Shown here in pieces: positions 12,045 to 41,409 of a stretch of 64,000 nt of DNA (its first letter is position 1; each line of letters starts with the position of its first letter). A program made the translations under genes and the position numbers. The notes under the pieces were generated by a model. The model did no database searches. It was not told where the DNA came from and saw only the letters and a list, made by a program, of their open reading frames with translations. The DNA comes from a virus: UHGV virus genome UHGV-1383976; one strand, written 5' to 3'.

Positions 12045-12130
12045 GCGGGTGTGTCGGAATGGGTAGACGATATGGACTTAAAATCCATTGGCGGGATGCT
12101 GTACGGGTTCGAGTCCCGTCACCCGTACCA
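12045..12130 (+). tRNA. tRNA-Leu(TAA), type II, CCA encoded
   Basis: Acceptor gcgggtg/cacccgt. Anticodon arm atgga-cttaaaa-tccat. Long variable arm. T-arm gggttcgagtccc. Confidence 0.8.
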
Positions 12131-12313
12131 AATGATAATAAGTAGTGCAGTGAATTCTTCCTAAGCCAATGTGTATGGTAGGCCAATCAAGATAATTAGG
12201 GTTAAGTATTCATGGGTCATGCACGGCTCTGCTTATTATCATTACCAACTGTCGTTCTCAATAGCGACTTAGAAGCAATTCTCAAAAAGTATCAAAAAGA
12301 AAGGAGAAAAGGG

Positions 12314-13216: not shown

Positions 13217-13254
13217 ATAAATGAGCTGGCATCTCAATAAACTGCCATTAATAT

Positions 13255-13330
13255 GCCCAGATAGCTCAGCAGGTAGAGCAGAGGATTGAAGATCCCCGTG
13301 TCGCTAGTTCGATTCTGGCTCTGGGCACCA
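13255..13330 (+). tRNA. tRNA-Phe(GAA), CCA encoded
   Basis: Acceptor gcccaga/tctgggc. Anticodon loop ttGAAga. T-arm gctagttcgattctggc. One A-C mismatch in the anticodon stem. Confidence 0.7.
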
Positions 13331-13358
13331 TTTGGGATTGTTTACTGTTTCTTGTTCC

Positions 13359-13398
13359 CTTAATTGCAAAAGTGCATGAGTAGCAATTAAAAAACATC
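13359..13398 (+). terminator. intrinsic terminator after tRNA-Phe
   Basis: taattgcaaaagtgcatgagtagcaattaaaaaaca. Confidence 0.5.
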
Positions 13399-13501
13399 TA
13401 AGCGGCGTGTATCGTTGGTCATTCGAGGGCTATGTCAAGGCTTAAAAGACCACAGTCGATTGGGGTTGGTAAACCTCCTGCGGGGAAGCTTCCATTATTA
13501 T

Positions 13502-13584
13502 GGGCGAGTGGTGGAACTGGTAGACACAGTAGCCTTAGGAGCTACCACTTCAGTGTAGGGGTTCGAGTCCCCTCCCGCCCACCA
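13502..13584 (+). tRNA. tRNA-Leu(TAG), type II, CCA encoded
   Basis: Anticodon arm gtagc-cttagga-gctac. T-arm aggggttcgagtcccct. Acceptor has one A-C mismatch. Confidence 0.7.
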
Positions 13585-13704
13585 TAAGTCTCCAAGAGGA
13601 TGGATTCCGGCTAAACTACCACCGGCGCACAATGTGTGATATGTGGCTTTGTCATTTGTGGAGACTATAATAAATAAAAACGAAAGTAAGCCGTTTTGAA
13701 ATAT

Positions 13705-13789
13705 GGGGGATTGGTGAAATAGGTAGACACGTGGCACTCAAAATGCTATGGCGAGAGCCGTATCAGTTCAAATCTGATATCCCCTACCA
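13705..13789 (+). tRNA. tRNA-Leu(CAA), type II, CCA encoded
   Basis: Acceptor gggggat/atcccct. Anticodon arm tggca-ctcaaaa-tgcta. T-arm atcagttcaaatctgat. Confidence 0.7.
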
Positions 13790-13812
13790 TTTACACAATA
13801 AAAGGAGATAAA

Positions 13813-14397
13813 ATGTCAAAGAATTTTTACATTAGTGACACCCATTTTGGACACGCTAACATTCTGAGATTTGATAGACGCCCATTCAATTCTGTTGAAG
13901 AAATGAACGCCGCGCTCATCAAGAATTGGAATGACGCAGTTGACCCGAATGACAATATTTACATACTGGGCGATTTTTGCTGGGGCAAGTCTGATGAATG
14001 GATTGATATTTTGTCTCAGCTCCAAGGCAACAAATATCTTATTGCAGGCAACCATGACTTGCGTAATCCTCCTTCTACTGTGCGGCGGTTCTTTCAGGAT
14101 TGGCGCGACTACAAAGAAATTTCTAACAACGATCGTAAGGTTATAATGTGTCATTATCCGATTCCATTTTACAAGTCAGATTACAACTCAAACACTTATA
14201 TGTTATTTGGTCATTTGCATACAACATTTGAGAATGAATATCTGGAAAATTTGCGATATCAAATAGAAAATGATCCTTATGAGCGGCCAGCCAAAAATCT
14301 TTGTCAGTTTTATAACGTCGGCTGTATGATGCCGTGGATGGACTATACACCGCGCACATTGGATGAAATTGTAGATGGATTTGCTAAGTTCCATTGA
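13813..14397 (+). CDS. calcineurin-like metallophosphoesterase
   Basis: ISDTHFGH...YILGDF...GNHD motifs. 194 aa. Confidence 0.7.
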   Translation: MSKNFYISDTHFGHANILRFDRRPFNSVEEMNAALIKNWNDAVDPNDNIYILGDFCWGKSDEWIDILSQLQGNKYLIAGNHDLRNPPSTVRRFFQDWRDYKEISNNDRKVIMCHYPIPFYKSDYNSNTYMLFGHLHTTFENEYLENLRYQIENDPYERPAKNLCQFYNVGCMMPWMDYTPRTLDEIVDGFAKFH

Positions 14398-14409
14398 AGG
14401 GGAATAGGC

Positions 14410-14961
14410 ATGGCAGTAAATAAAGGATATTTAACAGCAAAAACAGATAAAGAGTCTGATGAAGTATATACACCAGCATATGCTGTTCGACCTTTGGTTA
14501 AGTATTTGCGATTTTTTGAAAAAATAAAGGGGCATCCAATAAAAATTTGGTGTCCTTTTGATACGCAAAGCTCGCAATATGTTCAAGTGTTTAGAGAAGC
14601 TGGTTTTGAGGTTATTCACTCTCATATTGAGGAAGGGAAAAATTTCTTTTTCTACGAACCCGATGAACGGTATGATATTATTATTTCGAATCCACCTTTT
14701 TCACAAAAGGACAATGTTTTGAAACGTTTGTTTGAGTTAAACAAGCCATATGCGATGTTATTGCCAATTCCAGCCTTGCAAGGGCAAAAGCGTTTCCCTT
14801 ATATAAAAGATGGACTACAATATCTTGGTTTTGATAAGAGAATTAATTATTATACTAATGCAGATTTTTCTCAAGTGCAAAAAGGGGTTTCTTTTGGTTC
14901 TTGTTATTTGTGTAAGCAATTTCTTCCAAGAGATTTAATTCTTGAAGAGTTGGAAGCGTAA
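14410..14961 (+). CDS. small NPPF-motif protein, phage Dam-like N6-adenine DNA methyltransferase candidate
   Basis: DIIISNPPFSQKDNVLKRL resembles MTase motif IV. Paralog of 16582..17358. Confidence 0.45.
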   Translation: MAVNKGYLTAKTDKESDEVYTPAYAVRPLVKYLRFFEKIKGHPIKIWCPFDTQSSQYVQVFREAGFEVIHSHIEEGKNFFFYEPDERYDIIISNPPFSQKDNVLKRLFELNKPYAMLLPIPALQGQKRFPYIKDGLQYLGFDKRINYYTNADFSQVQKGVSFGSCYLCKQFLPRDLILEELEA

Positions 14962-14966
14962 AAAAT

Positions 14967-15054
14967 GCGGGATGAACTCAGACGGCTCTGAAACCGGTCT
15001 TGAAAACCGTGGGCAGGCAAAACCTGTGGGGATCGACACCTCCGTCCCGCGCCA
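14967..15054 (+). tRNA. tRNA-Ser(TGA), type II, CCA encoded
   Basis: Acceptor gcgggat/gtcccgc. Anticodon arm ccggt-cttgaaa-accgt. Variable arm gggcaggcaaaacctgtgg. Atypical T-loop. Confidence 0.6.
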
Positions 15055-15058
15055 ATAT

Positions 15059-15144
15059 GCGGAGTAAATTTAGAAGGTCTAAAGCTCCCCTGCTAAGGGA
15101 TGCGTGGTGAAAACCATGGGGTTCGCGTCCTCTGCTCCGCGCCA
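15059..15144 (+). tRNA. tRNA-Ser(GCT), type II, CCA encoded
   Basis: Acceptor gcggagt/gctccgc. Anticodon loop ctGCTaa. Variable arm tgcgtggtgaaaaccatg. Confidence 0.6.
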
Positions 15145-15232
15145 GCCCCATCTTCAGTTCTATAGCTGGTGAAGATGGATAGGCGATGAAGTATAGCAAT
15201 AATATGGCATGAGAACTATGATAGTGTTTCAT

Positions 15233-15322
15233 GAGAGCGTAACTCAGTCGGTAGAGTTTTATAGCGTGAAGGGATATGCTATTGAATGCCCTTAGTCGCC
15301 AGTTCGAATCTGGCCGCTCTCA
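15233..15322 (+). tRNA. tRNA-like gene with oversized anticodon region (pseudo-tRNA or insert-containing tRNA); no encoded CCA
   Basis: Perfect acceptor gagagcg/cgctctc, D-arm and T-arm gccagttcgaatctggc. A 40-nt stretch between them contains the stem aaggg/ccctt around a 15-nt loop, atatgctattgaatg. Confidence 0.4.
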
Positions 15323-15350
15323 TTAAAAATATATATGAAGAGGAATAGTT

Positions 15351-15605
15351 ATGGCAATTAATATCATTAGTAAAGGAATAGATTTAAATAATCCTACCTA
15401 TGAAACACAGTGTCCTCATTGTAAATGTGTGTTTACCTATCAAGATTCTGATACTACTCAAAAACCTACTGGTAGATATTATAAAGATTTTGAGGAGTAT
15501 TTCATTAAGATGGATGATTGCAATAGGAAAGAAATTGCTGTGTATATTGATTGCCCTTGGTGCCATGAAAGAAACCATGTGAAAGATAAATATGTAAAAA
15601 TATAA
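15351..15605 (+). CDS. zinc-finger protein (84 aa)
   Basis: CPHCKC...CPWCHERNH. SD agaggaatagttATG. Confidence 0.55.
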   Translation: MAINIISKGIDLNNPTYETQCPHCKCVFTYQDSDTTQKPTGRYYKDFEEYFIKMDDCNRKEIAVYIDCPWCHERNHVKDKYVKI

Positions 15606-15610
15606 TAAAT

Positions 15611-15643
15611 GGCTCAGTAGCTCAGAGGCAGAGCGTGCGGCTG
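15611..15643 (+). other. truncated tRNA 5' fragment (acceptor 5' strand plus D-arm only)
   Basis: ggctcag-ta-gctcagaggcagagc is a canonical tRNA 5' third. No anticodon arm, T-arm or 3' acceptor follows. The PD-(D/E)xK-like gene at 15667 is inserted immediately downstream. Confidence 0.45.
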
Positions 15644-15666
15644 TTTACTTGACCTTATCATTCTTT

Positions 15667-16098
15667 ATGAAAAAGATAATGAATAGTAAGCAAAAAGGAA
15701 ACATTACAGAACTTGAAACAATGTTAGCATTTCTAAAACTTGGTTATAATGTTTTAACTCCATATGGAGATTGTGAGAGATATGACTTTGTTGTAGATGT
15801 TAATGGAAAATTTATTCGAGTTCAAGCTAAAACATCAAATACTGAAGATGATGGTGCATCATTTAAATTTTCTTGTAGAAGTTGCAATAGAAAAGATGGT
15901 AAAATTGTGCATCATATATATTTAAGCGAAGAAATTGATTACTTCGTAACTACTTTTAATGGAAAATGTTATTTAATTCCAGTTGAAGAGTGCGGAGCTG
16001 ATAAAAGACTTCGTATTCTTCCAACAAAAAATGGACAGGTAAGAGGTATTACTTGGGCAAAAGATTATGAATTGGAGGAAGTAGTAAAGAATTGGTAA
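15667..16098 (+). CDS. PD-(D/E)xK-like nuclease family protein (paralog of 17599..17958), possible homing-type endonuclease in the tRNA island
   Basis: GDCERYDFVVDVNGKFIRVQAKTSN is a D...(E/Q)xK-like core. Start at the ATG at 15667 (MKKIMN). Confidence 0.45.
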   Translation: MKKIMNSKQKGNITELETMLAFLKLGYNVLTPYGDCERYDFVVDVNGKFIRVQAKTSNTEDDGASFKFSCRSCNRKDGKIVHHIYLSEEIDYFVTTFNGKCYLIPVEECGADKRLRILPTKNGQVRGITWAKDYELEEVVKNW

Positions 16099-16158
16099 GC
16101 TGATGTGTAAGCAACCGCAAGGTCGAGATATCGTAATTCTCCTGAGCCTCCATATTAT

Positions 16159-16234
16159 GCGCCATTAGCTCAGTTGGTAGAGCATGGCACTTTTAATGCT
16201 GGGGTCTGCGGTTCAAGTCCGCAATGGCGCACCA
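16159..16234 (+). tRNA. tRNA-Lys(TTT), CCA encoded
   Basis: Acceptor gcgccat/atggcgc. Anticodon loop ctTTTaa. T-arm tgcggttcaagtccgca. Confidence 0.8.
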
Positions 16235-16254
16235 TAAATTTTGGAGGAAGTAAA

Positions 16255-16515
16255 ATGAAGCTGACAGAGAAAGGGACAATTGTATTTGCCGCTGCGTTAG
16301 AGCATTGTCCCAATGAACCTTTTACAGCGGCCAGTTTATCAACAAAGTGTGGCCTTCCTATTTCTGCAGCTACACTCAATGGTATCACCAATCAGGGACT
16401 TATGACTCGACTTGGCGGTTCGCCCGTTAAGTTTGAGTTAGTTTCTAACGCGAAAGACTTGTATAACAAGGCGCGCGAAGGCAAATCGGCGAATGAAAAT
16501 TTAAATAAAGCGTAG
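16255..16515 (+). CDS. hypothetical protein (86 aa)
   Basis: SD ggaggaagtaaaATG at 16255. The track ORF start at 16174 overlaps the tRNA. Confidence 0.5.
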   Translation: MKLTEKGTIVFAAALEHCPNEPFTAASLSTKCGLPISAATLNGITNQGLMTRLGGSPVKFELVSNAKDLYNKAREGKSANENLNKA

Positions 16516-16581
16516 GTTGCGAAAAATGATGAGTTTTATACTCAATATCAAGACATTGAAAAAGAGATTCTGCAGTATGAC

Positions 16582-17358
16582 TTGCGTGGTAAAAAGGTTT
16601 TATGTAATTGTAATGATGGTTTGACAAGTGAGTTCTTAAATTATTTTGTCAATAATTTTGATTGTCTTGAACTTGATGAACTTGTTTGTTTGACTTATAA
16701 TAAAGATGGAAAGGCATATAAGTATACCAAGCGTCCTAAAGTTGACCTTATGGTTGAACCACTCATCGGTTCTGGTGCATTTGATTCACAGGAAGGCCGA
16801 GATGCTCTTGCCGCTTGTGATATTGTTATAACAAATCCTCCCTTTAGTCAATTTCGAGATTTTGTCAATTTGATTTTGTCTTACAAAAAAGATTTTTTGA
16901 TAATTGGCAGTAAAAATGCTATTACCTACAAAGAATTTTTTCCACTTTTAATGAGTGGTAAAGTTCATATTGGCAATTTCAATGTTTCTACTTTTAAACA
17001 GCCAGATGGTACTGATAAAAAATTTGGTAATATCGGTTGGTTTACGACTCTTTCTGTTGTAAAAGCGGCACAACCAATTCCTTTAACAGCAACCTATGAT
17101 CCGCAAAATTATCCTACTTATGATAACTTCCGTGCAATTGAAGTAAGTCGCACAGCTAATATTCCTAAGGACTATGATGGCGTAATGGGGGTTCCTATTT
17201 CATTTCTGGACAAATTTTGTCCTACTCAATTTAAAATTGTTGGATGGAGTCGTCATAATGACGAAGGAATGGATGGCGGATACTGGACGGGTGGTTGTGC
17301 TGATGCTACTATAAATGGTAAGCAAGTTTATCGCAGAATTTTGATTCAGAAAATTTGA
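16582..17358 (+). CDS. NPPF-motif protein, Dam-like DNA methyltransferase candidate (paralog of 14410..14961)
   Basis: DIVITNPPFSQFRDFVNLI. 258 aa. Confidence 0.45.
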   Translation: MRGKKVLCNCNDGLTSEFLNYFVNNFDCLELDELVCLTYNKDGKAYKYTKRPKVDLMVEPLIGSGAFDSQEGRDALAACDIVITNPPFSQFRDFVNLILSYKKDFLIIGSKNAITYKEFFPLLMSGKVHIGNFNVSTFKQPDGTDKKFGNIGWFTTLSVVKAAQPIPLTATYDPQNYPTYDNFRAIEVSRTANIPKDYDGVMGVPISFLDKFCPTQFKIVGWSRHNDEGMDGGYWTGGCADATINGKQVYRRILIQKI

Positions 17359-17400
17359 TTTTTATTAAAATTTTCGATATAATATATATAGAAAGTTGAG
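17355..17400 (+). promoter_or_regulatory. class I promoter
   Basis: TTGATT-17-TATAAT, then ATATATAGAAAGTTGAGAGAGAAAC. Confidence 0.6.
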
Positions 17401-17598
17401 AGAGAAACTTCCAGAGGTTGCGAATTAGCTATTCAATACAAAATCTCTCAAAATGATAAGGTTTTCGGTGTTTTACTTATCGGTTTTCTATGCAAAATGG
17501 TTCTAACAAGCCAGCGTGCGCGCGAGTAAAAGTTGTTAATAAGCGGTTGGCATACGTGATAAGCCGTTGCCCCAGCGAGAAGATTTAATAAATCTTCT

Positions 17599-17958
17599 TT
17601 GTTGGTGGTGTTTAATAAAAATGCGTCAGTAGCAACCCAGTGGTATGATTTGATTATAGAAAAAGATGATAAATTTGAAACAGTACAATGTAAGTGTACT
17701 GGTTCTCAGAACAACGTCATTAGTCTAAAGTCTTGTGGCGGTACAAAAGGTGAAGCTTATGACAATGTTCTTAATCATTCTGGGCTTGATAAATTATTTT
17801 GCGTGGATATAAATGGTAATATGTACGTGATCCCGATGTCAGAGGTTGTGGCATCTGGAAATACTAAGCAAATTACTTTACGTACTGAACCCACAGCAAA
17901 TAATCAAGGTTTTCAAACTCATAAATTTCGAGTTCAATTCTCGTTTCAAGCGTCGTAA
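17599..17958 (+). CDS. PD-(D/E)xK-like nuclease paralog, N-terminally shortened; GTG or TTG start, possible pseudogene
   Basis: WYDLIIEKDDKFETVQCKCTG aligns with YDFVVDVNGKFIRVQAKTS of 15667..16098. No in-frame ATG near the 5' end. Confidence 0.4.
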   Translation: MLVVFNKNASVATQWYDLIIEKDDKFETVQCKCTGSQNNVISLKSCGGTKGEAYDNVLNHSGLDKLFCVDINGNMYVIPMSEVVASGNTKQITLRTEPTANNQGFQTHKFRVQFSFQAS

Positions 17959-18008
17959 ACCCGTTTCCTTCGAGAGTAACTGGATCGACACCAGTCTGAC
18001 GCACCATT

Positions 18009-18082
18009 TCGGGAATGTGGTGTAATGGTAGCACACTTGATTTGGGGTCAAGGAGAGTGGTTCGAATCCAACATTTCCGACC
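18009..18082 (+). tRNA. tRNA-Pro(TGG), CCA encoded
   Basis: Acceptor cgggaat/atttccg. Anticodon arm cttga-tttgggg-tcaag. Weak T-stem (3 bp). Confidence 0.55.
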
Positions 18083-18086
18083 AAGA

Positions 18087-18174
18087 TGCTGAGTTCCCAT
18101 AGTGGTCGATTGGAGCGGTCTTGTAAGCCGCAGACTTCGTGTCCGCATCAGTTCGAATCTGATACTCAGCTCCA
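18087..18174 (+). tRNA. type II tRNA, Tyr-like (GTA), with an apparent 8-nt anticodon loop CTTTGTAA
   Basis: Acceptor gctgagt/actcagc. Anticodon stem gcggt/gccgc flanking an 8-nt loop. Variable arm agacttcgtgtccgc. T-arm atcagttcgaatctgat. Confidence 0.55.
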
Positions 18175-18178
18175 CTAT

Positions 18179-18254
18179 AAGGGAGTAGCCCAATAGGTAA
18201 GGCAGCAGTCTCCAAAACTGAAGATTAAAGGTTCGAGTCCTTTCTCTCTTGCCA
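18179..18254 (+). tRNA. tRNA-Trp(CCA), CCA encoded
   Basis: Anticodon loop ctCCAaa. T-arm aaaggttcgagtccttt. Acceptor aagggag/ctctctt with G-U pairs. Confidence 0.65.
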
Positions 18255-18288
18255 ATAATTTCATTTTTCAAATTTCCTTTCTTAAAAT

Positions 18289-18335
18289 TTGACTTTTTCA
18301 AAAAATCTTGATATAATATATACATAAGATAAAGA
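18289..18335 (+). promoter_or_regulatory. class I promoter (variant) driving a 13-codon leader ORF and a structured RNA region
   Basis: TTGACT-17-TATAAT, then atatacataagataaagaaaagaaaaag, then SD aaaggagg, then ATGctagtgccacctacacgtggtgtcctctgttttcgcTAA. Confidence 0.55.
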
Positions 18336-18359
18336 AAAGAAAAAGTCAAAAGGAGGACA

Positions 18360-19060
18360 ATGCTAGTGCCACCTACACGTGGTGTCCTCTGTTTTCGCTA
18401 AGAGCGCTGGCATATATCCAATTAAATAATACTAACTCAGTGAAGACGGAATTCGATGTTCCGGCTGAGAAATTCCAGCTAGCACAGCAGAAACGAAACA
18501 AGGATACTTGTGGATACTGGACTGAGAGGCCATCGAGAGATGAGCCGAAGTAGAGCGGTCGCTCAAGTGGGAAGAAGAGCAGGAATTGTGCTGAGTGAAT
18601 CGCAAGCAAACGCAGCCGTGGAGTGGCGAGCGCAATAGACAGCTTGGTGAATAGCCAAGCCGAACCCAAGTTAGGTCTTAGTTGGTGCCTGTGGCAATCC
18701 TTGGGAAAACCAATAAGCTCGTTCCGTTGAGACGACAGGGAATGTGAAATCTGTCTTTGACACTCTACAGCATCCGAGTAGCGGAACACAACGGGGACTT
18801 ATAGAAAAGATGGTCAGTAATAATAGAAATTGCTATTTTATCTTTCTGAACATCCCGTGAAAGGTAGAGGTAATCAACCCTCTGGCGGATTAGGCGACAT
18901 TAGACACTTGGGCTATCCAAGAGTAACAAGTCAATGTTGTTGCTGGGGTAAGAAGTGTATGGGCGACGGCCTGTATGCTCAGACTTATCTCCCGCGTGGC
19001 AGAATATGCTTGAAGGTTTATCGAGGTAGGGCGAAGGCCCAGTAATATTTAGTTGGATTT
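18360..19060 (+). ncRNA. GC-rich ORF-free structured region (candidate large ncRNA) downstream of a strong promoter
   Basis: About 700 nt with stops in all frames of all three codon types and visibly higher GC than its surroundings. Only spurious minus-strand ORFs in the track. Confidence 0.35.
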
Positions 19061-19064
19061 ATAT

Positions 19065-19137
19065 GGCAGGACGAGAAGGTTCTCCATTTGGCCTCATAAG
19101 CCAGATTTCGTGGGTTCGATTCCCACTCCTGCATCCA
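19065..19137 (+). tRNA. tRNA-Met(CAT), CCA encoded
   Basis: Anticodon arm ttggc-ctCATaa-gccag. T-arm gtgggttcgattcccac. G-A mismatch at acceptor position 1-72. Confidence 0.6.
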
Positions 19138-19140
19138 TAT

Positions 19141-19215
19141 GTCGTATTGGTGTTAGTGGCAGCACGATAGCCTTCCAAGCTATATGGAGGAGTTCGAGTC
19201 TCCTATACGACTCCA
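19141..19215 (+). tRNA. tRNA-Gly(TCC), CCA encoded
   Basis: Acceptor gtcgtat/atacgac. Anticodon arm atagc-cttccaa-gctat. T-arm ggagttcgagtctcc. Confidence 0.8.
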
Positions 19216-19361
19216 TTTTAGAAATGTCTTGAACGACAGGAGGTTTTGCTTATGGATATAACAAAATCTAATGAGGACTGCGGTCCAACGAACAGGACAA
19301 AGAGTTGGGCCTCTCTATAAAAAGGCCCTCGTAAGAAAATTTGGAAAGGAAGTAAAGTAAA

Positions 19362-19775
19362 ATGAAGTATTATAGTGATGTTCTTCATACGCTGTTTGAT
19401 ACTCAGGATGCGCTTGAGGAAGCCGAAGCGAAGAAAACCGCGGCAGATGCTGAGAAAGTACATGCAAAAGAAACGGCTAGAAAACGTAGAGAAGAAGATA
19501 AAGAACGTTTCCTTGAGTTGAGAAAGAAGTTCAATAAGATCAGCACTGAGTATGACAAGACATCTAAAGAGTATATGGACTATGCTGATAAGATGATGCA
19601 GGAGTATTCATTAGATGCTGTGCTGGATTGGCTTTCTGATGCTTTTCTTTATGATTGTGCCACAGCTAAGACGAAAGCAGATGCATCATCTACCACAACT
19701 GCTACCACGAAAACTGCGCGGGAGCCTGAAAACTTGGGAGAAATTCTTGCCCGTATTTTTGAGGATATGCGCTGA
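19362..19775 (+). CDS. hypothetical acidic coiled-coil protein (scaffold-like?)
   Basis: 137 aa, rich in E/K/A. SD gaaaggaagtaaagtaaaATG. Confidence 0.55.
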   Translation: MKYYSDVLHTLFDTQDALEEAEAKKTAADAEKVHAKETARKRREEDKERFLELRKKFNKISTEYDKTSKEYMDYADKMMQEYSLDAVLDWLSDAFLYDCATAKTKADASSTTTATTKTAREPENLGEILARIFEDMR

Positions 19776-19789
19776 GAATTTTGAATAAA

Positions 19790-20330
19790 TTGGCGCGATT
19801 GATTATCAAATCGTCCCACGGAGTTGAAGCTAAAACGTTAGCGGTGAATATGGCCATTCCCGCAAGCTCGGCGGTTTGTTAGGCAACCGCGCGGATGTAA
19901 ATTATTGATAGGAAACTTTGGTTTAATTTACTCACTGAAGTTCTCCAAAAGTCGAACTAGAGCCTAAACTGAGTTCGCAGTGCTGAGGCCGGCATACGCT
20001 CGGAGAGGATGCGTTATTGAGCTAATTGGATTAGTGTCAATGTGAGGCAACGGTGGCCAACTCTTAGAGAGCCACGCGACAGAGTTATGCTAAAAGGCAA
20101 TGCCCAGTATCGGTGCCACTAGGGTTGATAGACAAGTAGTAAAAGTCAGGTGAAGACAATACCGGCTGACATAATTGGGACGTAGTCATAGGCGTAGGCC
20201 GTGCCAAAACTAAAAATCAAAGTGTGCGGCACACGAAACCCAAGTCAGATGCGGGCGATTGAAACGGCGCCCTCAACCCATATAAGGTTTTACAAGAGAT
20301 TTTCCTTGTGTTAGACTAAAAAATCTCTTT
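19790..20330. ncRNA. second GC-rich ORF-free structured region (candidate ncRNA or degenerate tRNA-like array)
   Basis: About 540 nt with no ORF. Contains an anticodon-arm-like hairpin gcggtt-tgttaggc-aaccgc. Confidence 0.3.
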
Positions 20331-20343
20331 TTTGTATAAATTT

Positions 20344-20418
20344 AGAGGTATAGTGTAATTGGCAACACATCGGCCTTTGACGCCGTATTTATAGGTTCGA
20401 GTCCTGTTACCTCTGCCA
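20344..20418 (+). tRNA. tRNA-Gln(TTG), CCA encoded
   Basis: Acceptor agaggta/tacctct. D-arm gtgtaattggcaacac. Anticodon loop ctTTGac. T-arm ataggttcgagtcctgt. Confidence 0.65.
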
Positions 20419-21160: not shown

Positions 21161-21481
21161 ATGGATAAATATACTGGCTATTATGAGTGGCATCCATCAG
21201 AACAAGGACTTGAGGATTTTTATTCTGGCCTTTTTACACCTGCAGGGATGGGCTTGGTTGAAAACCAGTATTTGATTATCTATGACTCCGAAGATAAGGT
21301 TATAGATAAATATTTTTGTAAGAACAATGAATTTGAAAAGGTTCATTATATGGCGCTTCAAAGCGATTACTGTGGGGTTATCAAACCACGCAATGTATAT
21401 CAGGAATTGGCTATTCATTCCCTTATGGATAGACGTGTTCCCGTAAAAGTTTTGGGTGGCGTCTTTGGCTCGGGTAAATAA
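21161..21481 (+). CDS. phoH: phoH-like ATPase, exon 1 (N-terminal part, ending inside the Walker A motif)
   Basis: ORF ends ...VKVLGGVFGSGK then a stop, so the P-loop is cut after GK. The C-terminal PhoH homology resumes at 22412-22942. Confidence 0.55.
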   Translation: MDKYTGYYEWHPSEQGLEDFYSGLFTPAGMGLVENQYLIIYDSEDKVIDKYFCKNNEFEKVHYMALQSDYCGVIKPRNVYQELAIHSLMDRRVPVKVLGGVFGSGK

Positions 21482-22426
21482 CTTGCCCCTTCTTAGGGCG
21501 ACCTAAGAATGAAAATCGCGTGAATTGCTGGAAGCCTAAGCCGCAAGGTATGGTAATCAGCAGCCAAGCCGTTTTAGCAACGGAAGGTTCAACGACTATC
21601 CCGGCAGGGAGTAGGGAGCAATCCCGAAGCGCGCGACAACTTTTGTTTTGTTTTTATTTTAATAAAGGAGGTGAGGTTATAAATAAGTGGACAGATGAAC
21701 AAAAAGCAGAAATTATTGATGATTATACCAAAAAAGGTATGACTTTGGCAGAGATTGGAAAAAAATTTCATTCTAAAGGAGATACAATTAGTAAATATCT
21801 AAAGTCTTGGGATATTCCCATCAATCGTAGAAAGAAAAATCGGCTTATGAATGAAAAGTTTTTTTCTATAATTGACTCAGCTGAAAAGAGTTATTTTCTG
21901 GGCTTGTTATTCGCTGATGGTTCAGTTGTTTTAAATAGCGAGCGGGCGCCATATGTTTCTTTAGAATTAGTAGAAAAGGACAAAGAAATATTAGAAATTT
22001 TCCGTTCATTATTAAATTGTCAAAATGACTTATACTACAATAAGCGAGATAATCGGAAGAATGGAACATATACTTTTGGAGTAAGAAGTCAATTACTAGC
22101 TGATGATTTAGCTAAATTTAATATCATTCCAAATAAAACTTATGAAACAACCCAAGTAATTTTCCCAGAAAATTTTCTTATTGATTTTCTAAGAGGGTAT
22201 ATTGATGGCGATGGCTCTATTTATCAAAATGTTTATAAGGCCGTTTGGAATGGACAAGATGCTAAACGAATTATAAACATTCTCTATTTAAAGAACGATG
22301 GCATTGCGCTCTCTCGAAAACGAGAACGAGCTAAGTTAGCTCAACAAAACAAAAGTTGATGATATAGTCTAATCCCTTTTTAAAAATATCGGGAAACCGA
22401 GGGTATAAATGAAGGATCTTCTAATG
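21476..22426 (+). mobile_element. group I intron (boundaries approximate) carrying a LAGLIDADG homing endonuclease gene and splitting the phoH-like gene
   Basis: GC-rich structured 5' part: ggaagcctaagccgcaaggtatggtaatcagcagccaagcc...gttcaacgacta...atcccgaagcg. It is homologous to the 5' part of the second intron at 34.4 kb. Candidate 5' splice sites fall after U21475 or A21478. Candidate 3' ends fall at G22411 or G22426. Confidence 0.5.
21680..22359 (+). CDS. LAGLIDADG homing endonuclease (two-motif) with N-terminal HTH; start uncertain
   Basis: LGLLFADGSV and LRGYIDGDGSI motifs. The ORF is open from 21520, but no canonical start follows the SD aaaggaggtgagg at about 21662. The first ATG is at 21742. 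Confidence 0.7.
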
Positions 22427-22942
22427 AGCGGGGCTTGTTTTAGCTTTATCGAAAAAGGTATTTTTGAAAAACTTGTTTATATACGCCCCAATATCACGCT
22501 TGAAGGAGTGCCTGATATTGGCTACCTCAAAGGCGGAATGGACGAAAAGCTTGAATGGACTTTAGCTCCATTATGGGATAAGTTCGGTGGCCGCGAAGCT
22601 ACTCAAAATCTTGTTGCTTCTGGCAAGATTGAGCTTGTAGCCTTACCTTTTATCAAAGGTCGCAGTTTTGAAAACAGCATTATTTATGTCAGTGAAGGCC
22701 AGAACATTACTCGTAAAGTCGCTGGCAATATTATTAGTCGCGCTGGTGAGGGCACTGAAATTTGGATAAATGGCGACTATCACAGTCAGACCGATCGCAG
22801 AATGTTTGAGGTTGATAATGGTATGCGTGCGATGGAGGAAACCCTGAAAGGCAATGCGCTCTATGAAACTATTTATCTTCCTATTACAGAGCGTTCTGCT
22901 GTAGCTCAACTTGCTGGAATTGTTTGTAACACTGAAAATTGA
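22412..22942 (+). CDS. phoH: phoH-like ATPase, exon 2
   Basis: IRP...LGYL...VALPFIKGRSFENSIIYVSEGQN...IWINGDYHSQTD parallels E. coli PhoH TRP...[24 protein letters not shown]...VITGDVTQIDL. Confidence 0.6.
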   Translation, partial: KDLLMSGACFSFIEKGIFEKLVYIRPNITLEGVPDIGYLKGGMDEKLEWTLAPLWDKFGGREATQNLVASGKIELVALPFIKGRSFENSIIYVSEGQNITRKVAGNIISRAGEGTEIWINGDYHSQTDRRMFEVDNGMRAMEETLKGNALYETIYLPITERSAVAQLAGIVCNTEN

Positions 22943-33354: not shown

Positions 33355-33401
33355 ATAAAAATATAAGATAATTGAGATTTTACAAAAGGAGATCAATTCA
33401 A

Positions 33402-34389
33402 ATGATAGGCGTAGACCTAAATCAATATCGTAATCTACCTGATTACGCACAACTTAAAAAGGATGGTTATGAGTTCGCCATTATAAAACTGGCAACTGGT
33501 GTAACCTTTACTAACCCGCTTTTTCAAACCCAGTTTAGTGGTTGTAAGTCAGCCGGCCTAAACATCGGCGTTTATACTCGTGCCGACAAGCAACCTACAA
33601 GCGGCGCACAGGAAGCTGCCTATGCACTCAACATACTAGGTAATCGTCATGTAGATTTCCCCATCTACTATGACGTAGAGGGAGAAACACTAAATCTTTC
33701 AAAAGACAAGCTGACTCAGCTGGCTCTTGATTTTGGTAAAGCAATAAAACGCGCAGGATATCGCTGGGGTATTTATACATCCCGCGCACATTTCAAATGC
33801 TTTGACCTTGACAGGCTGAAAGAAGCTGGCGCATCTATATGGTGCGCCGCCTATGATAATCAAGCTGGTATGGAGTGCGACATTTGGCAAAAGTCAGATA
33901 AAGGCTCTATTACAGGATATTCTGGACCAGTTGATGTAGATGTTTTATATAATGAAAGCATAATACAGAAGGAGGAAAATAAAATGAGTTTGAATTTGAT
34001 AAAATGTTTTCAAACACAAGGCGCGTGGTATAATCAAACCACAAATGGAACTCCTGTTGGGGTATGTTGGCACGATACCGGCGCTGGTAACCCAACATTG
34101 AAGCGCTATGTCCAGCCATCTACTAATGACCCCGATTATAATTATTTTATAAACCTTATCGGCAAGAACAATAATGGCAATCACTGGAATCGTATGGCCG
34201 CAAATCAGGCAGGATTGAACGCTTGGATTGGTCAACTCGCGGATGGCAGTGTTGCTACTGTTCAGGCTGGCCCTTGGGAAAAGCGTCCTTGGGGTGTTGG
34301 CTCTGGCAGATACGGTTCACTTAATGGTGATAAGAATGTGCCTAATGATAAGTTTTGGATCCAGTTTGAGATTACATCGTTGCTAGTCT
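33402..34389 (+). CDS. endolysin exon 1: GH25 muramidase domain plus N-terminal half of an amidase_2 (PGRP-type) domain
   Basis: GH25 motifs MIGVDLNQY...FAIIKLATG...GVYTRA.... Then VCWHDTGAGN...AWIGQLADGSVATVQAGPWEKRPWGVGSG...IQFEI matches the first half of amidase_2. Unspliced, the ORF runs to the stop at 34397. Confidence 0.6.
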
Positions 34390-35469
34390 CCGCGTAAAGC
34401 GATTTGCGTGTAAAAATACATATCGAATTGCTGGAAAACCGTAAAGCTATTCTTGCTACAACGTAAGGATGAAACAAGCCTAAGCGTGAAAGCCGCGAAA
34501 GCAGAAAGAAAAGAATAGATGGCGTATGGTTAAATCCTAAGCGCTATATAATTGGCAATCAGCAGCTAAGCCTTGAATAAAGGAAAGTTCAACGACTAAG
34601 TGCCTTGCAAGCGATTGGCAAGGACAGTGGTATGCGGCTCATTGAGCCGAAGATATAGTCTGTGCTTCGAGAGAAATCCGAAGGAGCGAAAGCTCAGTGC
34701 GGGGTAGCGCCCAAAAAGTTTATTTTGAATGGAGAAAGAAATGACTTATAAAGAATTTATTGACAATATTTTAGAAGAACGAGGACGTTTTTCGTGTGGA
34801 GAGGAATATCACGAGAGGCATCACATTCTTCCTAAGTGCAAAGGCGGCACAGATGATAAAGAAAATTTGATTGACTTATTTGCTAAAGAGCATTTTATTG
34901 CGCATAAATTGTTAGCTGAAGAAAATCCTGAAGATATAAGTTTGGTTAGGGCTTATCAATGCATGACAATAGCTAGAAATCCAAAAACTGCACGATATAT
35001 TGCTTCTTCTGAAGAGTATGAGGAAGCAAGAAAAATGTTTTCAGAAGCTCTCAAAGAATTATATAAAGACAAAACAAAGCATCCAAGCTATGGCAAACAT
35101 ATTAGTGAAGAAAGAAAACAACGAATTAGTGAAGCCAATAAAGGAAATAAGTATTGCGTTGGCCGGAAAGTTTCAGAAGAAACACGCAAGAAAATAAGTG
35201 AAGCCAATTCGAACCCTTCCGCCGAAACGCGTGAAAAAATGAGTCAATCTCAAAAGAAGCTCGCACGGTGGGATGGAGCAAAGAATCCTAAAGCTCGAAA
35301 AGTTGTTCGTCTTTCTGATGGGAAAGTTTATGATTGTATTAAATATGCCGCCGAAGAAAATAATATTCCTCTCTCCACTTTCAAAAGTAGATTACACAAA
35401 GGCAAAGGCGATTTTGTGTATTTCGAAGACTATCAAAATAAACAGCACTAAACACAAACAGATGTGACG
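34390..35469 (+). mobile_element. group I intron (boundaries approximate) carrying an HNH homing endonuclease gene and splitting the endolysin within its amidase_2 domain
   Basis: The 5' portion ggcaatcagcagctaagcc...gttcaacgacta...atccgaaggagcgaaagctcag is homologous to the phoH intron core. The amidase_2 reading frame reopens at 35442 and continues in frame into the PG-binding and SH3b domains. Confidence 0.5.
34729..35451 (+). CDS. HNH homing endonuclease with NUMOD3-like C-terminal repeats
   Basis: HHILPKCKGGTDDKENLIDLFAKEHFIAH is an HNH core. Repeats SEERKQRISEANKGN, SEETRKKISEANS and SAETREKMSQSQK. Confidence 0.75.
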   Translation: MEKEMTYKEFIDNILEERGRFSCGEEYHERHHILPKCKGGTDDKENLIDLFAKEHFIAHKLLAEENPEDISLVRAYQCMTIARNPKTARYIASSEEYEEARKMFSEALKELYKDKTKHPSYGKHISEERKQRISEANKGNKYCVGRKVSEETRKKISEANSNPSAETREKMSQSQKKLARWDGAKNPKARKVVRLSDGKVYDCIKYAAEENNIPLSTFKSRLHKGKGDFVYFEDYQNKQH

Positions 35470-36524
35470 ATTACGCACACAACCAACCTTGTCGCAGATC
35501 TTATTTTGAACAAGCCTATCAGCAAGCTGTCGAATTTACTGCCTACATTTGCCAACTCTATAACATAGACCCGTTTGGCACCGCCAATTACCGTGGCCAC
35601 GATATTCCGACAATTTGTTGCCACTATGATAGCTATAAGTTTGGTTTTGGTTCCAATCACAATGATGTCTATCAATGGTTCAATCGTTTTGGTAAAACTA
35701 TGGATGATGTCAGACGCGATGTTGGCGCACTAATGGGTAAGGTTGTCGTTCCTGATACTCCCGACCCTGTCATTCCTTCTCAGCCATCTCGGCCTTCTAA
35801 CCCTTATCCGACACTTAGGGTTAGCGCACATGGCGTTGCCGTCAAAACTGCGCAACAACGTCTTATCGCACACGGTTATGATGTTGGTTCCGCTGGTGCT
35901 GATGGCTGGTTTGGTGAAGGTACTCTCAAGGCCGTCAAGAGGTTTCAGTCTGATAAGGGTCTTACTGTTGATGGCATAATTGGCTCTGCTACTTGGACAG
36001 CGCTAAACAAAGAGCCAGAGAAGAAAGAAGAACCAGTGCAGCCTGTGCAACCAAGTGAGCCAGCTAAGCCTATCCAACCATCCACTAATCGTCCGACAAT
36101 CGGCGTTGGTGATAGTGGAGCTTACGTAAAAGAAGCCCAAACAATGCTGAAAAAGCTGGGCTATAACATTGGCTCCTATGGTGCGGATGGTGTGTTCGGC
36201 AACTCTACCAAAGGTGCAGTTCTCAATTTCCAAAAGAAGAGCAACCTCGATGCTGATGGCATTGTTGGCCCGAACACTTGGGCCAAACTCGATAAACAAA
36301 TTGCCGCGCTATCTGATAATTCGACTAGCTCTAGTGGAGTTCCATTCCTTGTTCGAGTCAATTCAAATGCCCTTAACATTCGTAAAGGCCCCGGTACTAA
36401 TTATGCTATTGCTCGTACTATAACCGACCGTGGCACCTACACAATAGTTGAAGTATCTGGTGATTGGGGCAAACTCAAGAGCGGCGCAGGCTGGATAAAT
36501 CTGAATTATACTACCAGAGTTTGA
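35470..36524 (+). CDS. endolysin exon 2: C-terminal half of amidase_2, two PG_binding_1 repeats and an SH3b domain
   Basis: YFEQAYQQAVEFTAYICQLY...YRGHDIPTICCH is the amidase_2 C-half with zinc ligands. GVAVKTAQQRLIAHGY...DGWFGEGTLKAVKRFQ occurs twice. The C-terminus ALNIRKGPGTNYAIARTITDRGTYTIVEVSGDWGKLKSGAGWINLNYT is SH3b-like. Confidence 0.6.
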
Positions 36525-36527
36525 TAC

Positions 36528-36562
36528 ACGACACTCCTGTTTATCAGGAGTGTCTTTTTTTG
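36528..36562 (+). terminator. intrinsic terminator after the endolysin
   Basis: acgacactcctgtttatcaggagtgtc followed by ttttttt. Confidence 0.6.
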
Positions 36563-37617: not shown

Positions 37618-38823
37618 ATGCTTGATGTAAAAATTTTTGCACGTTGTATTGAACAGACCGCTGAAGAGCAAATATACGATTTAGCCGCCTCGTCGATAGG
37701 AGAAAACGCGCACATACGAATAATGCCGGATGCGCACGCTGGTAAGGGATGCGTAATTGGAACTACTATGTTAGTAAAAGATAAGATTTGCCCTAATATT
37801 GTTGGCGTTGACATTGGATGCGGAGTTACTGCTGCAAAAATTAACTGTCCTTTGATCATGGATGAGTTAATGTTTTTGCGCGAACGCCTTGTAGATGGCG
37901 CAATACCATCAGGAAGCACTATATACAACGAATTTAGAGATTGGGATCCTTTTTTTGAACTTGGCGCAACTATCCTTCGTAAGTTGAGATGTAAGGAAAT
38001 TTACAATAAGTGTGAAATTGATTATTTTGCTAAGTCTATGGGAACACTCGGAGGCGGAAATCATTTCATTGAAATAGACGAAGACTCCGATGGCAATCAT
38101 TGGATTGTTGTACATACTGGCTCGCGCAATTTGGGCCTTCAGGTAGCAAAGTATTATCAAAACAGAGCAGAAATGCGAATTCTTGAAGAATATACTCACA
38201 AGCGTAATGCAGCTATCACTACGCTGAAAGAGGAAGGCCGCCAGCGTGAAATTTCAGAGGTATTAGCCTCTATCAAAAAAGATGCGCCATCTAAGTTTGA
38301 TTATTTAGTAGATAATGACTATAATAACTATCTTCGCGATATGGCACTTTGTCAGAAGTGGGCAAAATATAACCGAGCAAATATTATTTATAACATTGCT
38401 GCAATTTTAAATCGCAAAGTTACAATGACAGTTGAGTCAGTTCATAACTATATAGATTTTTCAACTCAAACACCTATCCTCCGCAAGGGCGCAATTTCGG
38501 CTAAGTATGACGAGATTTGTCTTATTCCACTCAATATGCGGGATGGTACGCTACTGTGCCGTGGAAAAGGTAACTCTGATTGGAACTTATCAGCTCCACA
38601 TGGAGCCGGACGACTTATGTCTCGCGCTCAGGCAAGAAAAGAATTATCTTTAGACGAGTTTGAAAAATCAATGGACGGCATTGTGTCAAACGTTTGTGCA
38701 GAAACCATTGATGAAGCACCTTTCGCTTACAAGAATTGGGAAGAGATTGAAGAAGCTGTGCGGCCTACCGTTGAAATTATTGACCACTGGAAGCCAATTT
38801 TCAATTTTAAGGCGATGTCTTAA
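37618..38823 (+). CDS. rtcB: RtcB-family RNA ligase (3'-phosphate/5'-hydroxyl)
   Basis: MPDAHAGKG, GVDIGCGV, GGGNHFIEID and HTGSRNLG are RtcB signature motifs. 401 aa. Confidence 0.85.
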   Translation: MLDVKIFARCIEQTAEEQIYDLAASSIGENAHIRIMPDAHAGKGCVIGTTMLVKDKICPNIVGVDIGCGVTAAKINCPLIMDELMFLRERLVDGAIPSGSTIYNEFRDWDPFFELGATILRKLRCKEIYNKCEIDYFAKSMGTLGGGNHFIEIDEDSDGNHWIVVHTGSRNLGLQVAKYYQNRAEMRILEEYTHKRNAAITTLKEEGRQREISEVLASIKKDAPSKFDYLVDNDYNNYLRDMALCQKWAKYNRANIIYNIAAILNRKVTMTVESVHNYIDFSTQTPILRKGAISAKYDEICLIPLNMRDGTLLCRGKGNSDWNLSAPHGAGRLMSRAQARKELSLDEFEKSMDGIVSNVCAETIDEAPFAYKNWEEIEEAVRPTVEIIDHWKPIFNFKAMS

Positions 38824-40395: not shown

Positions 40396-40401
40396 AAATA
40401 T

Positions 40402-40480
40402 GGGCCGGATAACTCAGATGGTAGAGAACCAGTGCGGTTAGGCGCTGGAGGAGGCGGTGGTTCGAATCCACCTCGGCCCA
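40402..40480 (+). tRNA. atypical tRNA-like gene (79 nt, no encoded CCA) with a 6-bp anticodon stem and an 8-nt loop cgGTTAgg
   Basis: Acceptor gggccgg/tcggccc. Perfect T-arm ggtggttcgaatccacc. Anticodon region ccagtg-cggttagg-cgctgg. Confidence 0.4.
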
Positions 40481-41330
40481 ATTAGATATGAAGGCGACAT
40501 ACAGTTATTATAGTCGCCGGACGTACTGCTCCGTCCATTACGAACAGAGCAGCCCCGCAAAACGAGGGTGAGAGTTGAGTTTGTTGGTTTTACTTGAAAC
40601 CGCCGTCGGGGTAAGTGGCGTTACATCTTACCAAAAAAATCCGTCTGACTGCAGTAAGGGCGGTTGGTTTGTAGGTTTGCCAATAGGTATAAGTCTAGAT
40701 ACCAATAAAATACTTACCAAAGAGGAGTAATATGGCTGAAGTCCTCCAGCGTGGTTGATATGTTGAAATGCCTAGGCCACGCACATATGTCAGTTTAGTT
40801 TAACGAGGGAAAACAACGCCCGTCAAGGCGTAATTTCGGGTTCGAGTCCCGAAACTGTCCTTGGTTTGACAGGCCAAGAAATTTGTCAGGTGCGGCCCTT
40901 TGTCGCCGGTCGAGACTCCGTCCGGAAATGAGCTACGTCTAAGTAAGAAGCGTGAACTTAGCGCTGATGTGCGTGATGCATCGGTTGCGTGTCCAAAACA
41001 CGACAGGTTTGGTTGAGTTTTCTACACAAAATTCAATTGGGTCAGGCCGCCCACAGGATGGCCGCGGGTTCCACTCCCCGAACGAAAAACAATCGGGAAA
41101 TCTCTTGTTTTTCTCAATTTTGTTAGTAGTTAGTCGCATTGATGAAATTGCTTTTTGGAGTAAAGTTGTGAGTAGCTAAAGAAATGACAATTCTTTTTCT
41201 ACTCAAAAAGCCAAGTATCCGCCTCTGCTTGGACATCCGCGCGAGGTTGCGTGTTGATGAAAAGCGTGGAAGGCAGTTATATAATGGGGACTGCCGCATA
41301 GTTGGTTTAGGAGAGTTGCCAGCTACGGAA
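40481..41330. ncRNA. third GC-rich ORF-free region with embedded tRNA-like fragments
   Basis: About 850 nt with no ORF. Contains tRNA-like gtcagtt...acgcc-cgtcaa-ggcgt...tcgggttcgagtcccga-aactgtc (6-nt anticodon loop, no CCA). Confidence 0.3.
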
Positions 41331-41332
41331 AT

Positions 41333-41409
41333 GGCGCATTGGACGAACTGGTAGAGTCACCACCCTTTCAAGGTGGAACTTAGGGGTTCAAGCCCCCTAT
41401 GCGTCACCA
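41333..41409 (+). tRNA. tRNA-Glu(TTC), CCA encoded
   Basis: Acceptor ggcgcat/atgcgtc. Anticodon arm ccacc-ctttcaa-ggtgg. T-arm aggggttcaagccccct. Confidence 0.65.

Follow-up and report, generated by a model that had tools for sequence, protein, structure and literature searches.

Organization of the endolysin locus

The window analysed here, a 64,000-nucleotide (nt) stretch of the virus genome UHGV-1383976, carries on its plus strand, between positions 33402 and 36524, the coding sequence of one endolysin in two pieces. The pieces are separated by 1089 nt that hold a group I ribozyme core followed by an open reading frame (ORF) for an HNH/NUMOD3 homing endonuclease. The locus is very probably one endolysin gene, belonging to a large uncultivated phage and interrupted by a mobile group I intron (Table 1).

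The endolysin start, ATG 33402, is supported by homologous loci, which align from residue 1 onward. Exon 1 codes for a glycoside hydrolase family 25 (GH25) domain and the N-terminal two thirds of an Amidase_2 domain, and its last bases are CAG UUU GAG AU. In the unspliced frame it reads ...KFWIQFEI and then runs on for eight codons (TSLLVSA) to a TAA at 34395-34397. The first-pass annotation of this DNA had placed the end of the first ORF in the middle of the amidase, at ...IQFEI, and this is correct: exon 1 ends within an isoleucine codon. The same annotation had located the remainder of the amidase and the wall-binding domains about 1.1 kb downstream, in a frame open after the HNH stop codon. 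Exon 2 indeed begins 10 nt past that stop codon (35449-35451), in a frame identical to that of exon 1 and open from just past the stop, with a translation beginning CDDYAHNQPCRRSYFEQAYQQAVEF...; it codes for the C-terminal third of Amidase_2, two PG_binding_1 repeats and an SH3b domain. The spliced product of 677 amino acids (aa) therefore combines GH25, Amidase_2, two PG_binding_1 and SH3b, that is five Pfam modules and not the four originally counted.

Table 1. Features of the interrupted endolysin gene, its intron and the predicted spliced protein
Feature	Position	Strand	Details and basis
Shine-Dalgarno sequence GGAG	33388-33391	+	10 nt 5' of ATG 33402; sequence read
Endolysin exon 1, 971 nt	33402-34372	+	ORF and translation, Pfam, alignment, blastn break against intron-less loci
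Group I intron, 1089 nt	34373-35461	+	Starts UACAUCG, ends ...AAACAG; Rfam, intron-less alleles, frame
P1	34368-34390	+	Exon GAGAU 34368-34372 pairs with guide GUCUC 34386-34390, loop 13 nt; direct complementarity
Ribozyme core	34391-34695	+	cmscan alignment, coordinates, covariation in 32 relatives
P2	within core 34391-34695	+	cmscan alignment
P3	34419-34425 with 34628-34634	+	cmscan alignment
P4	34429-34434 with 34559-34564	+	cmscan alignment
P5 with extension of ~100 nt	within core	+	cmscan alignment
P6	34565-34588	+	cmscan alignment
P7	34594-34598 with 34656-34660	+	GACUA with UAGUC; cmscan alignment
Extra hairpin between P7 and P3'	34600-34625	+	cmscan alignment; subgroup IA trait
P8	34635-34649	+	cmscan alignment
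P9	34665-34683	+	cmscan alignment
P9.1	34684-34695	+	cmscan alignment
ORF-closing helix, 5' arm GUUUAUUUUGA	34718-34728	+	Inverted repeat, 11/11 complementary
Intron-encoded HNH homing endonuclease, 236 aa	34741-35451	+	Pfam, PHROG, dN/dS, absence from intron-less alleles
ORF-closing helix, 3' arm UCAAAAUAAAC	35433-35443	+	Within last codons of HNH ORF
Endolysin exon 2, 1063 nt	35462-36524	+	ORF and translation, Pfam, alignment; stop codon 36522-36524
Intrinsic-terminator-like hairpin	36530-36554	+	10 bp (6 G-C) and T-run, directly 3' of endolysin stop codon
Glyco_hydro_25 (PF01183)	residues 4-172		78.8 bits, cut-off 27; profile positions 1-179 of 180 (Pfam, spliced protein)
Amidase_2 (PF01510)	residues 218-372		31.2 bits, cut-off 26 (Pfam); matched only by the spliced sequence
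PG_binding_1, two stretches	best stretch residues 448-505		130.6 bits, above cut-off (Pfam, spliced protein)
SH3_3	residues 627-670		23.3 bits, below cut-off 27 (Pfam, spliced protein)

The C-terminal SH3 assignment, which falls short of the Pfam cut-off, is backed by the aligned C-termini of homologues annotated with SH3_3. Comparison of the spliced amidase domain with 5.8 billion proteins gave 1435 matches, among them uninterrupted homologues with up to 73% identity over 98-100% of the query. The splice junction, FWIQFEI/CDDYAHNQPCR, falls without a gap within an invariant block of the homologue alignment. A sequence search of the PDB returned only chance matches for this domain and was uninformative, so structure prediction and Foldseek were used instead. 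The AlphaFold model of the spliced domain is a single compact fold, with a mean predicted local distance difference test score of 84 and a predicted template modelling score of 0.87. Its best PDB matches by Foldseek are AmiA, AmiE, PlyL, PlyP100, LytA, PlyG and LysGH15; for AmiA (4knk), AmiE (3lat), PlyL (1yb0) and LytA (4ivv) the Foldseek probability is 1.0, with E values from 2e-8 to 6e-6.

Five residues of the amidase, H224, E323, H378, H390 and D392 (domain numbering H30, E129, H184, H196 and D198), show no variation among 13 homologues, and they straddle the intron: the first two are encoded by exon 1 and the other three by exon 2. The intron lies inside the codon for Ile324 in the motif WIQFE/IC, one codon past the invariant Glu323. 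The H184-D198 spacing of 14 equals that of H165-D179 in AmiE. On the strength of this invariance, and of the spacing in AmiE and PlyL, invariant His and Asp residues are putative zinc ligands and E323 is the putative catalytic glutamate. By analogy with the His/His/Asp(Cys) zinc site and catalytic Glu of AmiE and PlyL, neither exon alone would be able to make an active amidase, since the invariant residues are split between the two.

The intron and its ribozyme

The intron core at 34334-34683 matches the Rfam model RF00028 (Intron_gpI) over its full length (model positions 1-253 of 253) with 71.2 bits and an E value of 4e-16, the gathering score being 50. A covariance search of this kind had been proposed in the first-pass annotation, and its outcome agrees with the group I intron named there.

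In group I introns the U preceding the 5' splice site pairs with a G of the guide sequence, and the last base of the intron is a G. These boundary rules, together with the reading frame, single out U34372 as the end of exon 1 and G35461 as the terminal base of the intron. The intron length of 1089 nt equals 3 x 363, so that the frame is exactly kept; the spliced exons rebuild the Ile324 codon (AU/A), and the product runs collinear with both the uninterrupted homologues and the intron-less alleles described below. The predicted ligated junction is CAGUUUGAGAU-AUGUGACGAU, and the 30-mer across it is TGGATCCAGTTTGAGATATGTGACGATTAC, from which the intron-less relatives differ in exon 2 (ATGYGATGATTATGC).

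P1 closes at the 5' splice site with the wobble pair U34372.G34386. Relatives of the intron keep this layout, a conserved UAG being followed by a variable guide, as in the UGGAU/GUCCA pairing of an Enterocloster phage. The J8/7 sequence AAGAUAUAGUC is present, and a subgroup-IA-like ribozyme is proposed. Covariation was assessed on 32 diverse cores from viral contigs, 50-65% identical to the window and including that of Enterocloster phage CB457P2, which were drawn from at least 119 loci found by a P4-P5 pattern among viral contigs. At the level of this family, RNAalifold recovers 66 consensus pairs, 48 of which show compensatory double changes. These changes are located in P2, P3, P5, the P5 extension, P6, P8 and P9, and the window sequence conforms throughout; P4 and P7 are uninformative because they are invariant. 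The ribozyme sub-family is marked by the extended P5 and the extra P7-P3' hairpin, and its P4-P5 signature, GAATTGCTGGAAANCCNNAAAGC, was detected in no fewer than 119 viral contigs; many of these are 100-270 kb long and many come from IMG dataset 3300045988. Among the relatives of the ribozyme there are at least three types of endonuclease: HNH, GIY-YIG and an unclassified 'intron encoded nuclease'.

The segment between the exons had been described as GC-rich, which proved incorrect: the GC content is 0.40-0.44 in the intron core against 0.38-0.50 in the exons, with 0.34-0.38 in the HNH ORF. A perfect 9-nt complement links the 5' splice-site region at 34365-34373 (UUUGAGAUU) with positions 35246-35254 inside the HNH ORF (AAUCUCAAA); it could be a competitor of P1, or a product of chance.

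The intron-encoded endonuclease

The HNH ORF lies 3' of P9.1. Its likely start is ATG 34741, served by a GGAG at 34731-34734, and the longest ORF, from ATG 34729, has 240 codons' worth of protein (240 aa). The earlier claim of a complete HNH gene in the gap is upheld, the ORF being intact at either length and matching Pfam HNH (22.3 bits, cut-off 21.4), three stretches of Pfam NUMOD3 (40.8 bits, cut-off 20.4) and PHROG 655 'homing endonuclease' (E 2e-38). The ratio of non-synonymous to synonymous divergence (dN/dS) is 0.05-0.06 against the corresponding genes of two other intron-bearing contigs, L001 and L002. Judged by these substitutions, the gene is kept intact by selection.

A predicted helix of 11 base pairs encloses the ORF (Table 1). 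It is prolonged on its outer side by AGUGC 34696-34700 and GCACU 35445-35449, and it appears in the minimum free energy fold of the intron from which the ORF has been deleted. When the two flanks were shuffled, a helix of this length was reached in one of 20000 trials. From the 3' arm, 12 nt are left to the 3' splice site, and the helix may thus explain how the terminal G, ~780 nt from P9, is presented to the core. In the Enterocloster intron no ORF-flanking helix as clean was found.

An exact-protein look-up of the HNH ORF returned zero records, and a PDB sequence search found only the generic HNH motif, in a group II maturase. The more distant HNH homologues include no lysin introns at the same site, and with Rfam, contigs L003, L006 and L007 yielded no intron even when the threshold was relaxed. 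A related HNH protein is encoded at 3573-4801 of contig L004 (IMGVR_UViG_3300032167_000680): identity reaches 64% over the N-terminal 106 aa and the C-terminal half is different. That gene sits 3' of a group I core scoring below threshold (46.5 bits), and the phage gene in which it lies is a different one, not a lysin; this suggests that the nuclease module moves between introns or targets. Two distant HNH homologues are found on a 316-kb viral contig, L034 (IMGVR_UViG_3300037067_008064), which also carries a permuted transfer-messenger RNA at 8139-8307 (Rfam RF04321, 63.4 bits).

Intron-less and intron-bearing alleles

Four relatives carry uninterrupted alleles of the endolysin gene, a class of locus which the first-pass annotation had advised looking for. 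Contigs L043 and L044 (IMG/VR, 147 and 155 kb) and L169 share 82% aa identity with the window's enzyme, and L045 shares 71%. In blastn comparisons with L043, L044 and L169 the alignment breaks at 34372 and resumes at 35462 on adjacent subject bases. The presence/absence polymorphism is therefore exact to the nucleotide. The empty site reads TGGATCCAGTTTGAGAT/ATGYGATGATTATGC in L043 and L044, and what the empty alleles miss is the ribozyme and the HNH ORF as one unit, with U/G boundaries.

Intron-bearing alleles occur on L001, L002 and L168, contigs of 126-132 kb that are 93-95% identical to the window in DNA; the intron occupies the same position in all three, HNH gene included. Since L168 and L002 may represent one genome, the independent carriers beside the window number at least two and possibly three. 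The ribozyme core differs among carriers by 4-5 changes in 356 nt. Against L001, the nucleotide differences amount to 7.8% in exon 1, 1.1% in the ribozyme core, 2.9% in the HNH ORF and 7.0% in exon 2. Synonymous divergence (dS) from L001 is 0.46 for exon 1, 0.135 for the HNH gene and 0.29 for exon 2; from L002 the values are 0.19, 0.15 and 0.93. In each of these comparisons the dS of the HNH gene lies below that of at least one flanking exon. Across L001 and L002 the intron shows 1-3% nucleotide differences against 4-15% in the flanking exons, and the more diverged exon is not the same one in the two contigs. Such a pattern of differences indicates mosaic recombination around the insertion site. 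It also suggests, from two or three comparisons, that exchange of the intron or the surrounding DNA postdates the divergence of the flanking exons, as homing would bring about.

Of the intron-less relatives, L169 (USJD01000001.1, 147,435 bp) is a contig from a gut metagenome bin labelled 'uncultured Prevotella sp.'. Because the lysin architecture argues for a Gram-positive host, L169 is probably a mis-binned phage; its label was rejected as host evidence, being attached to a 147-kb contig that resembles phage DNA within a metagenome bin. Both the modules of the lysin and its other homologues point to Gram-positive hosts of the Clostridia type. When the whole locus was compared by blastn with 50,697 phage genomes, no relative of the endolysin gene turned up and every match lay in the intron core.

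Evidence for splicing and a proposed mechanism

The case for splicing turns largely on the head of exon 2. Its first 79 codons (35463-35699) contain no in-frame ATG, GTG or TTG, and this segment can consequently be translated only as a continuation of exon 1. Between the window and L001 these codons show 15 synonymous and no non-synonymous differences; between the window and L002 and L168 the figures are 26.5 synonymous and 7.5 non-synonymous. By this measure the exon-2 head is under purifying selection. The first-pass proposal that splicing is required for the full enzyme gains support from a start-less segment that appears to be selected as protein. Its core statement, one endolysin split inside Amidase_2 by a group I intron with an HNH/NUMOD3 gene, is likewise in keeping with the Rfam core, the gap-free homologues, the empty alleles and the selection on exon 2.

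The following sequence of events is envisaged. The endolysin gene would be transcribed as one pre-mRNA, in which the intron would fold into a subgroup-IA-like ribozyme comprising P1 to P9.1, an extended P5 and the extra hairpin between P7 and P3'. The guide GUCUC would pair with the exon-1 end GAGAU, placing a U.G wobble at the cleavage site, and exogenous guanosine would attack 3' of U34372. The helix formed by 34718-34728 and 35433-35443 would loop out the 0.7-kb endonuclease ORF and bring the terminal G35461 near the core. Ligation of the exons would yield ...GAG AU/A UGU GAC..., encoding the 677-aa enzyme with its GH25 muramidase, Amidase_2, two PG_binding_1 and SH3b modules. Only the spliced mRNA would encode a complete amidase, with His224 and Glu323 contributed by exon 1 and His378 and Asp392 by exon 2, and only the spliced mRNA would join either catalytic domain to the wall-binding modules. 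The HNH/NUMOD3 protein would act on intron-less alleles, cutting or nicking them around TGGATCCAGTTTGAGAT/ATGYGATGATTATGC, and repair would then copy the intron in.

Several points weigh against this interpretation. Self-splicing, like the activity and the target of the endonuclease, is inferred from sequence. The assignment of zinc ligands and of the catalytic glutamate draws on invariance and on the spacing in AmiE and PlyL. A canonical P10 adjoining the guide sequence was looked for and not found; the sole candidate is a non-adjacent pairing of 5 base pairs between AUGUG 35462-35466 and UACAU 34373-34377. The Pfam HNH score barely exceeds its cut-off. Lastly, the sequence of the ORF-closing helix does not vary among the intron-bearing copies, so that support for it is statistical, from the shuffling test, and none comes from covariation.

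Alternative explanations

The alternative that survives best, although improbable, accepts the intron and holds that both messages are used: the unspliced one would give a GH25-only enzyme lacking a wall-binding domain and the spliced one the five-module lysin, the efficiency of splicing tuning the kind or timing of lytic activity. It is consistent with the clean end of the exon-1 ORF eight codons into the intron, at a stop codon in the P1/P2 region, and with the completeness of the GH25 domain in exon 1. Terminator-like sites were not found within the intron (34373-35461), the strongest one lying just 3' of the gene, which also agrees with two messages. On the other side, an early in-frame stop within an intron is expected by chance, and the stability or usefulness of the truncated product has no evidence behind it. 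Intron-less relatives make the full-length enzyme only, so that no requirement for two products is apparent. The further step, that the phage exploits splicing to choose between a diffusible GH25-only lysin and a wall-anchored bifunctional one, has a correspondingly small likelihood, and nothing specifically supports it. If it were true, ribozyme folding or the availability of guanosine late in infection would set the balance of products and hence the timing or mode of lysis.

It is very unlikely that the intron is dead or unspliced and that the locus makes two proteins, a GH25 enzyme that carries a stub of the amidase (33402-34397) and a wall-binding protein translated from ATG 35700. Both ORFs do exist as such, and GH25 is complete in the first of them. 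However, a start at ATG 35700, which has no Shine-Dalgarno sequence and had been named earlier as a possible independent start, is disfavoured because it would leave 79 conserved, selected codons untranslated, codons in which intron-bearing genomes differ by the 15 exclusively synonymous changes given above. A ribozyme core that is complete and nearly invariant among carriers, and a frame exactly kept across 1089 nt, also speak against a dead intron.

Still less credible is a free-standing HNH homing endonuclease gene that split the lysin with no working ribozyme, the two halves being translated separately and then associating. Free-standing endonuclease genes are known to split phage genes, and the HNH ORF has its own ribosome-binding site. 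Against this stand the full-length group I core directly 5' of the HNH ORF, the joint absence of ribozyme and ORF from intron-less alleles with U/G boundaries, and the lack of a start codon in the exon-2 head. The chance that the locus is an assembly artefact or a chimera of unrelated pieces is negligible: the window and its relatives are metagenome assemblies, but the arrangement recurs at 93-95%, and not 100%, identity on at least two, possibly three, contigs of 126-132 kb, its boundaries follow group I rules and the frame is kept. An intein was rejected, as the inserted DNA includes a ribozyme and a separate ORF and does not read in frame as protein; a group II intron was rejected, as the Rfam matches are to group I only. 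The reading retained is that of one endolysin gene interrupted by a mobile group I intron.

Other features of the window

A phoH-like gene at 21161-22942 (+) likewise contains a group I intron, which separates exon 1 (21161 to ~21480) from exon 2 (~22409-22942). The Walker-A motif ...GVFGSGK marks the end of exon 1, and the match to Pfam PhoH lies in exon 2. The intron scores 66.7 bits with Rfam at 21466-21741, with a weak piece of the 3' core at 22178-22391, and its ORF, a LAGLIDADG_3 endonuclease at ~21661-22359, is placed inside the core. Only 39 of 48 nt can be aligned between the lysin and phoH introns, in the universal P4/P6/P7 stretch of the core. Judged by sequence comparison, the two introns are of the same class and are not copies of one intron. 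Two suggestions of the first-pass annotation are thereby set aside. One, that the lysin segment is homologous to the phoH intron, reduces to generic core motifs. The other, that one intron family homed twice in this DNA, is at odds with the different endonucleases (LAGLIDADG versus HNH), with their placement at different points of the ribozyme and with a likeness of the cores that is confined to generic motifs.

At 37618-38823 (+), 1.1 kb 3' of the lysin, there is a gene for an RtcB-type RNA ligase (PHROG 1075 'tRNA splicing ligase', E 7e-122), in a genome that abounds in tRNAs and introns. The window holds about 15-17 transfer RNA (tRNA) genes in two clusters, 12045-20418 and 40401-41409 (+). 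Within the tRNA cluster a full-length ROOL RNA is found at 18412-19059 (+) (Rfam RF03087, 271.8 bits, E 4e-61), with tRNA-Met and tRNA-Gly immediately behind it. ARAGORN reports two tRNAs with abnormal anticodon loops, at 40401-40481 and 40789-40860, and a 92-nt 'tRNA-Phe' at 15232-15323 that is not called by Rfam. A tRNA-Sec-like Rfam match at 14966-15051 scores 41.2 bits, below the gathering score of 47.

Relation to known phage introns

Lysin introns had been said to be known in Firmicutes phages, and the literature agrees (PMC3952083, PMC5526547). Group I introns with an endonuclease ORF in the lysin genes of Streptococcus thermophilus phages were reported by Foley et al. (2000), as described in PMC3952083 and cited in PMC11878797. 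As in the window, these introns, including that of phage TP-EW, are about 1 kb long and carry an endonuclease ORF within a lysin gene; intron-plus and intron-minus phages coexist, and the exons are mosaic near the insertion site (PMC3952083). The phage lineage and the lysin are different, the present insertion falling in the Amidase_2 active-site motif of a GH25 and Amidase_2 enzyme. No S. thermophilus lysin intron was among the matches listed in the phage search by DNA similarity, in which no direct comparison was made.

In the Staphylococcus Kayvirus phages K, G1, ISP and A5W the endolysin (lysK-type) gene likewise holds a group I intron (PMC5526547). There, too, the host gene encodes a dual-catalytic endolysin (CHAP, Amidase_2 and SH3b) of a large phage with a Gram-positive host, and related phages are intron-less (PMC5526547). 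However, the Kayvirus intron that resembles the window's (72% over ~200 nt of DNA) sits in a virion structural or tail-tube gene and not in the lysin. Each Kayvirus record gave one match only among the matches listed.

The closest ribozyme core from an isolated phage is that of Enterocloster phage CB457P2 and its relatives (OP172754), with 72% identity over 238 nt; the core in the Kayvirus virion-structural gene ranks second. This intron, which is unannotated in its record, scores 95.9 bits with Rfam, shares the P5 extension and the extra P7-P3' hairpins with the window and has its endonuclease ORF 3' of P9. It differs in that the ORF is of the GIY-YIG, I-TevI-like type and the host gene encodes a hypothetical protein, not a lysin.

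More remote parallels are offered by the introns of T4 nrdD (sunY) and of SPO1 and SP82, which combine a subgroup IA ribozyme, an endonuclease ORF looped from a peripheral 3' element, an HNH-family endonuclease with NUMOD-type repeats and insertion in conserved sequence coding for an active site. Their host genes are different, and no sequence relationship to the window's intron is detectable beyond the family level. The DNA-polymerase introns of SPO1 and SP82 encode HNH nickases of the I-HmuI type, according to Landthaler (2004) as cited in PMC7685451.

Significance

With these precedents for the lysin gene and the ribozyme core in S. thermophilus, Staphylococcus and Enterocloster phages, the kind of element, its architecture and the type of host gene are known. 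What is new is the insertion site in Amidase_2, the five-module host enzyme and a phage lineage that has no close relative among the 50,697 deposited phage genomes. The position of the insertion, one codon from the invariant amidase Glu, fits the rule that homing elements target sequences which the host cannot change.

The practical consequence concerns annotation. In automated gene calls the locus will appear as a truncated 'GH25 hydrolase', an HNH gene and an orphan 'peptidoglycan-binding protein', and the 677-aa bifunctional endolysin will be missed; the mining of lysins in this phage group requires the spliced sequence. The alleles also form a natural intron-plus/minus series, with at least three carriers and four empty alleles, several of them from one dataset, and this series locates, with single-nucleotide precision, the predicted homing site of an HNH/NUMOD3 endonuclease that is as yet uncharacterised. 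The current understanding of group I introns is unchanged by the lysin intron; its value is that the lysin can be annotated correctly and that the predicted homing site is sharply defined.

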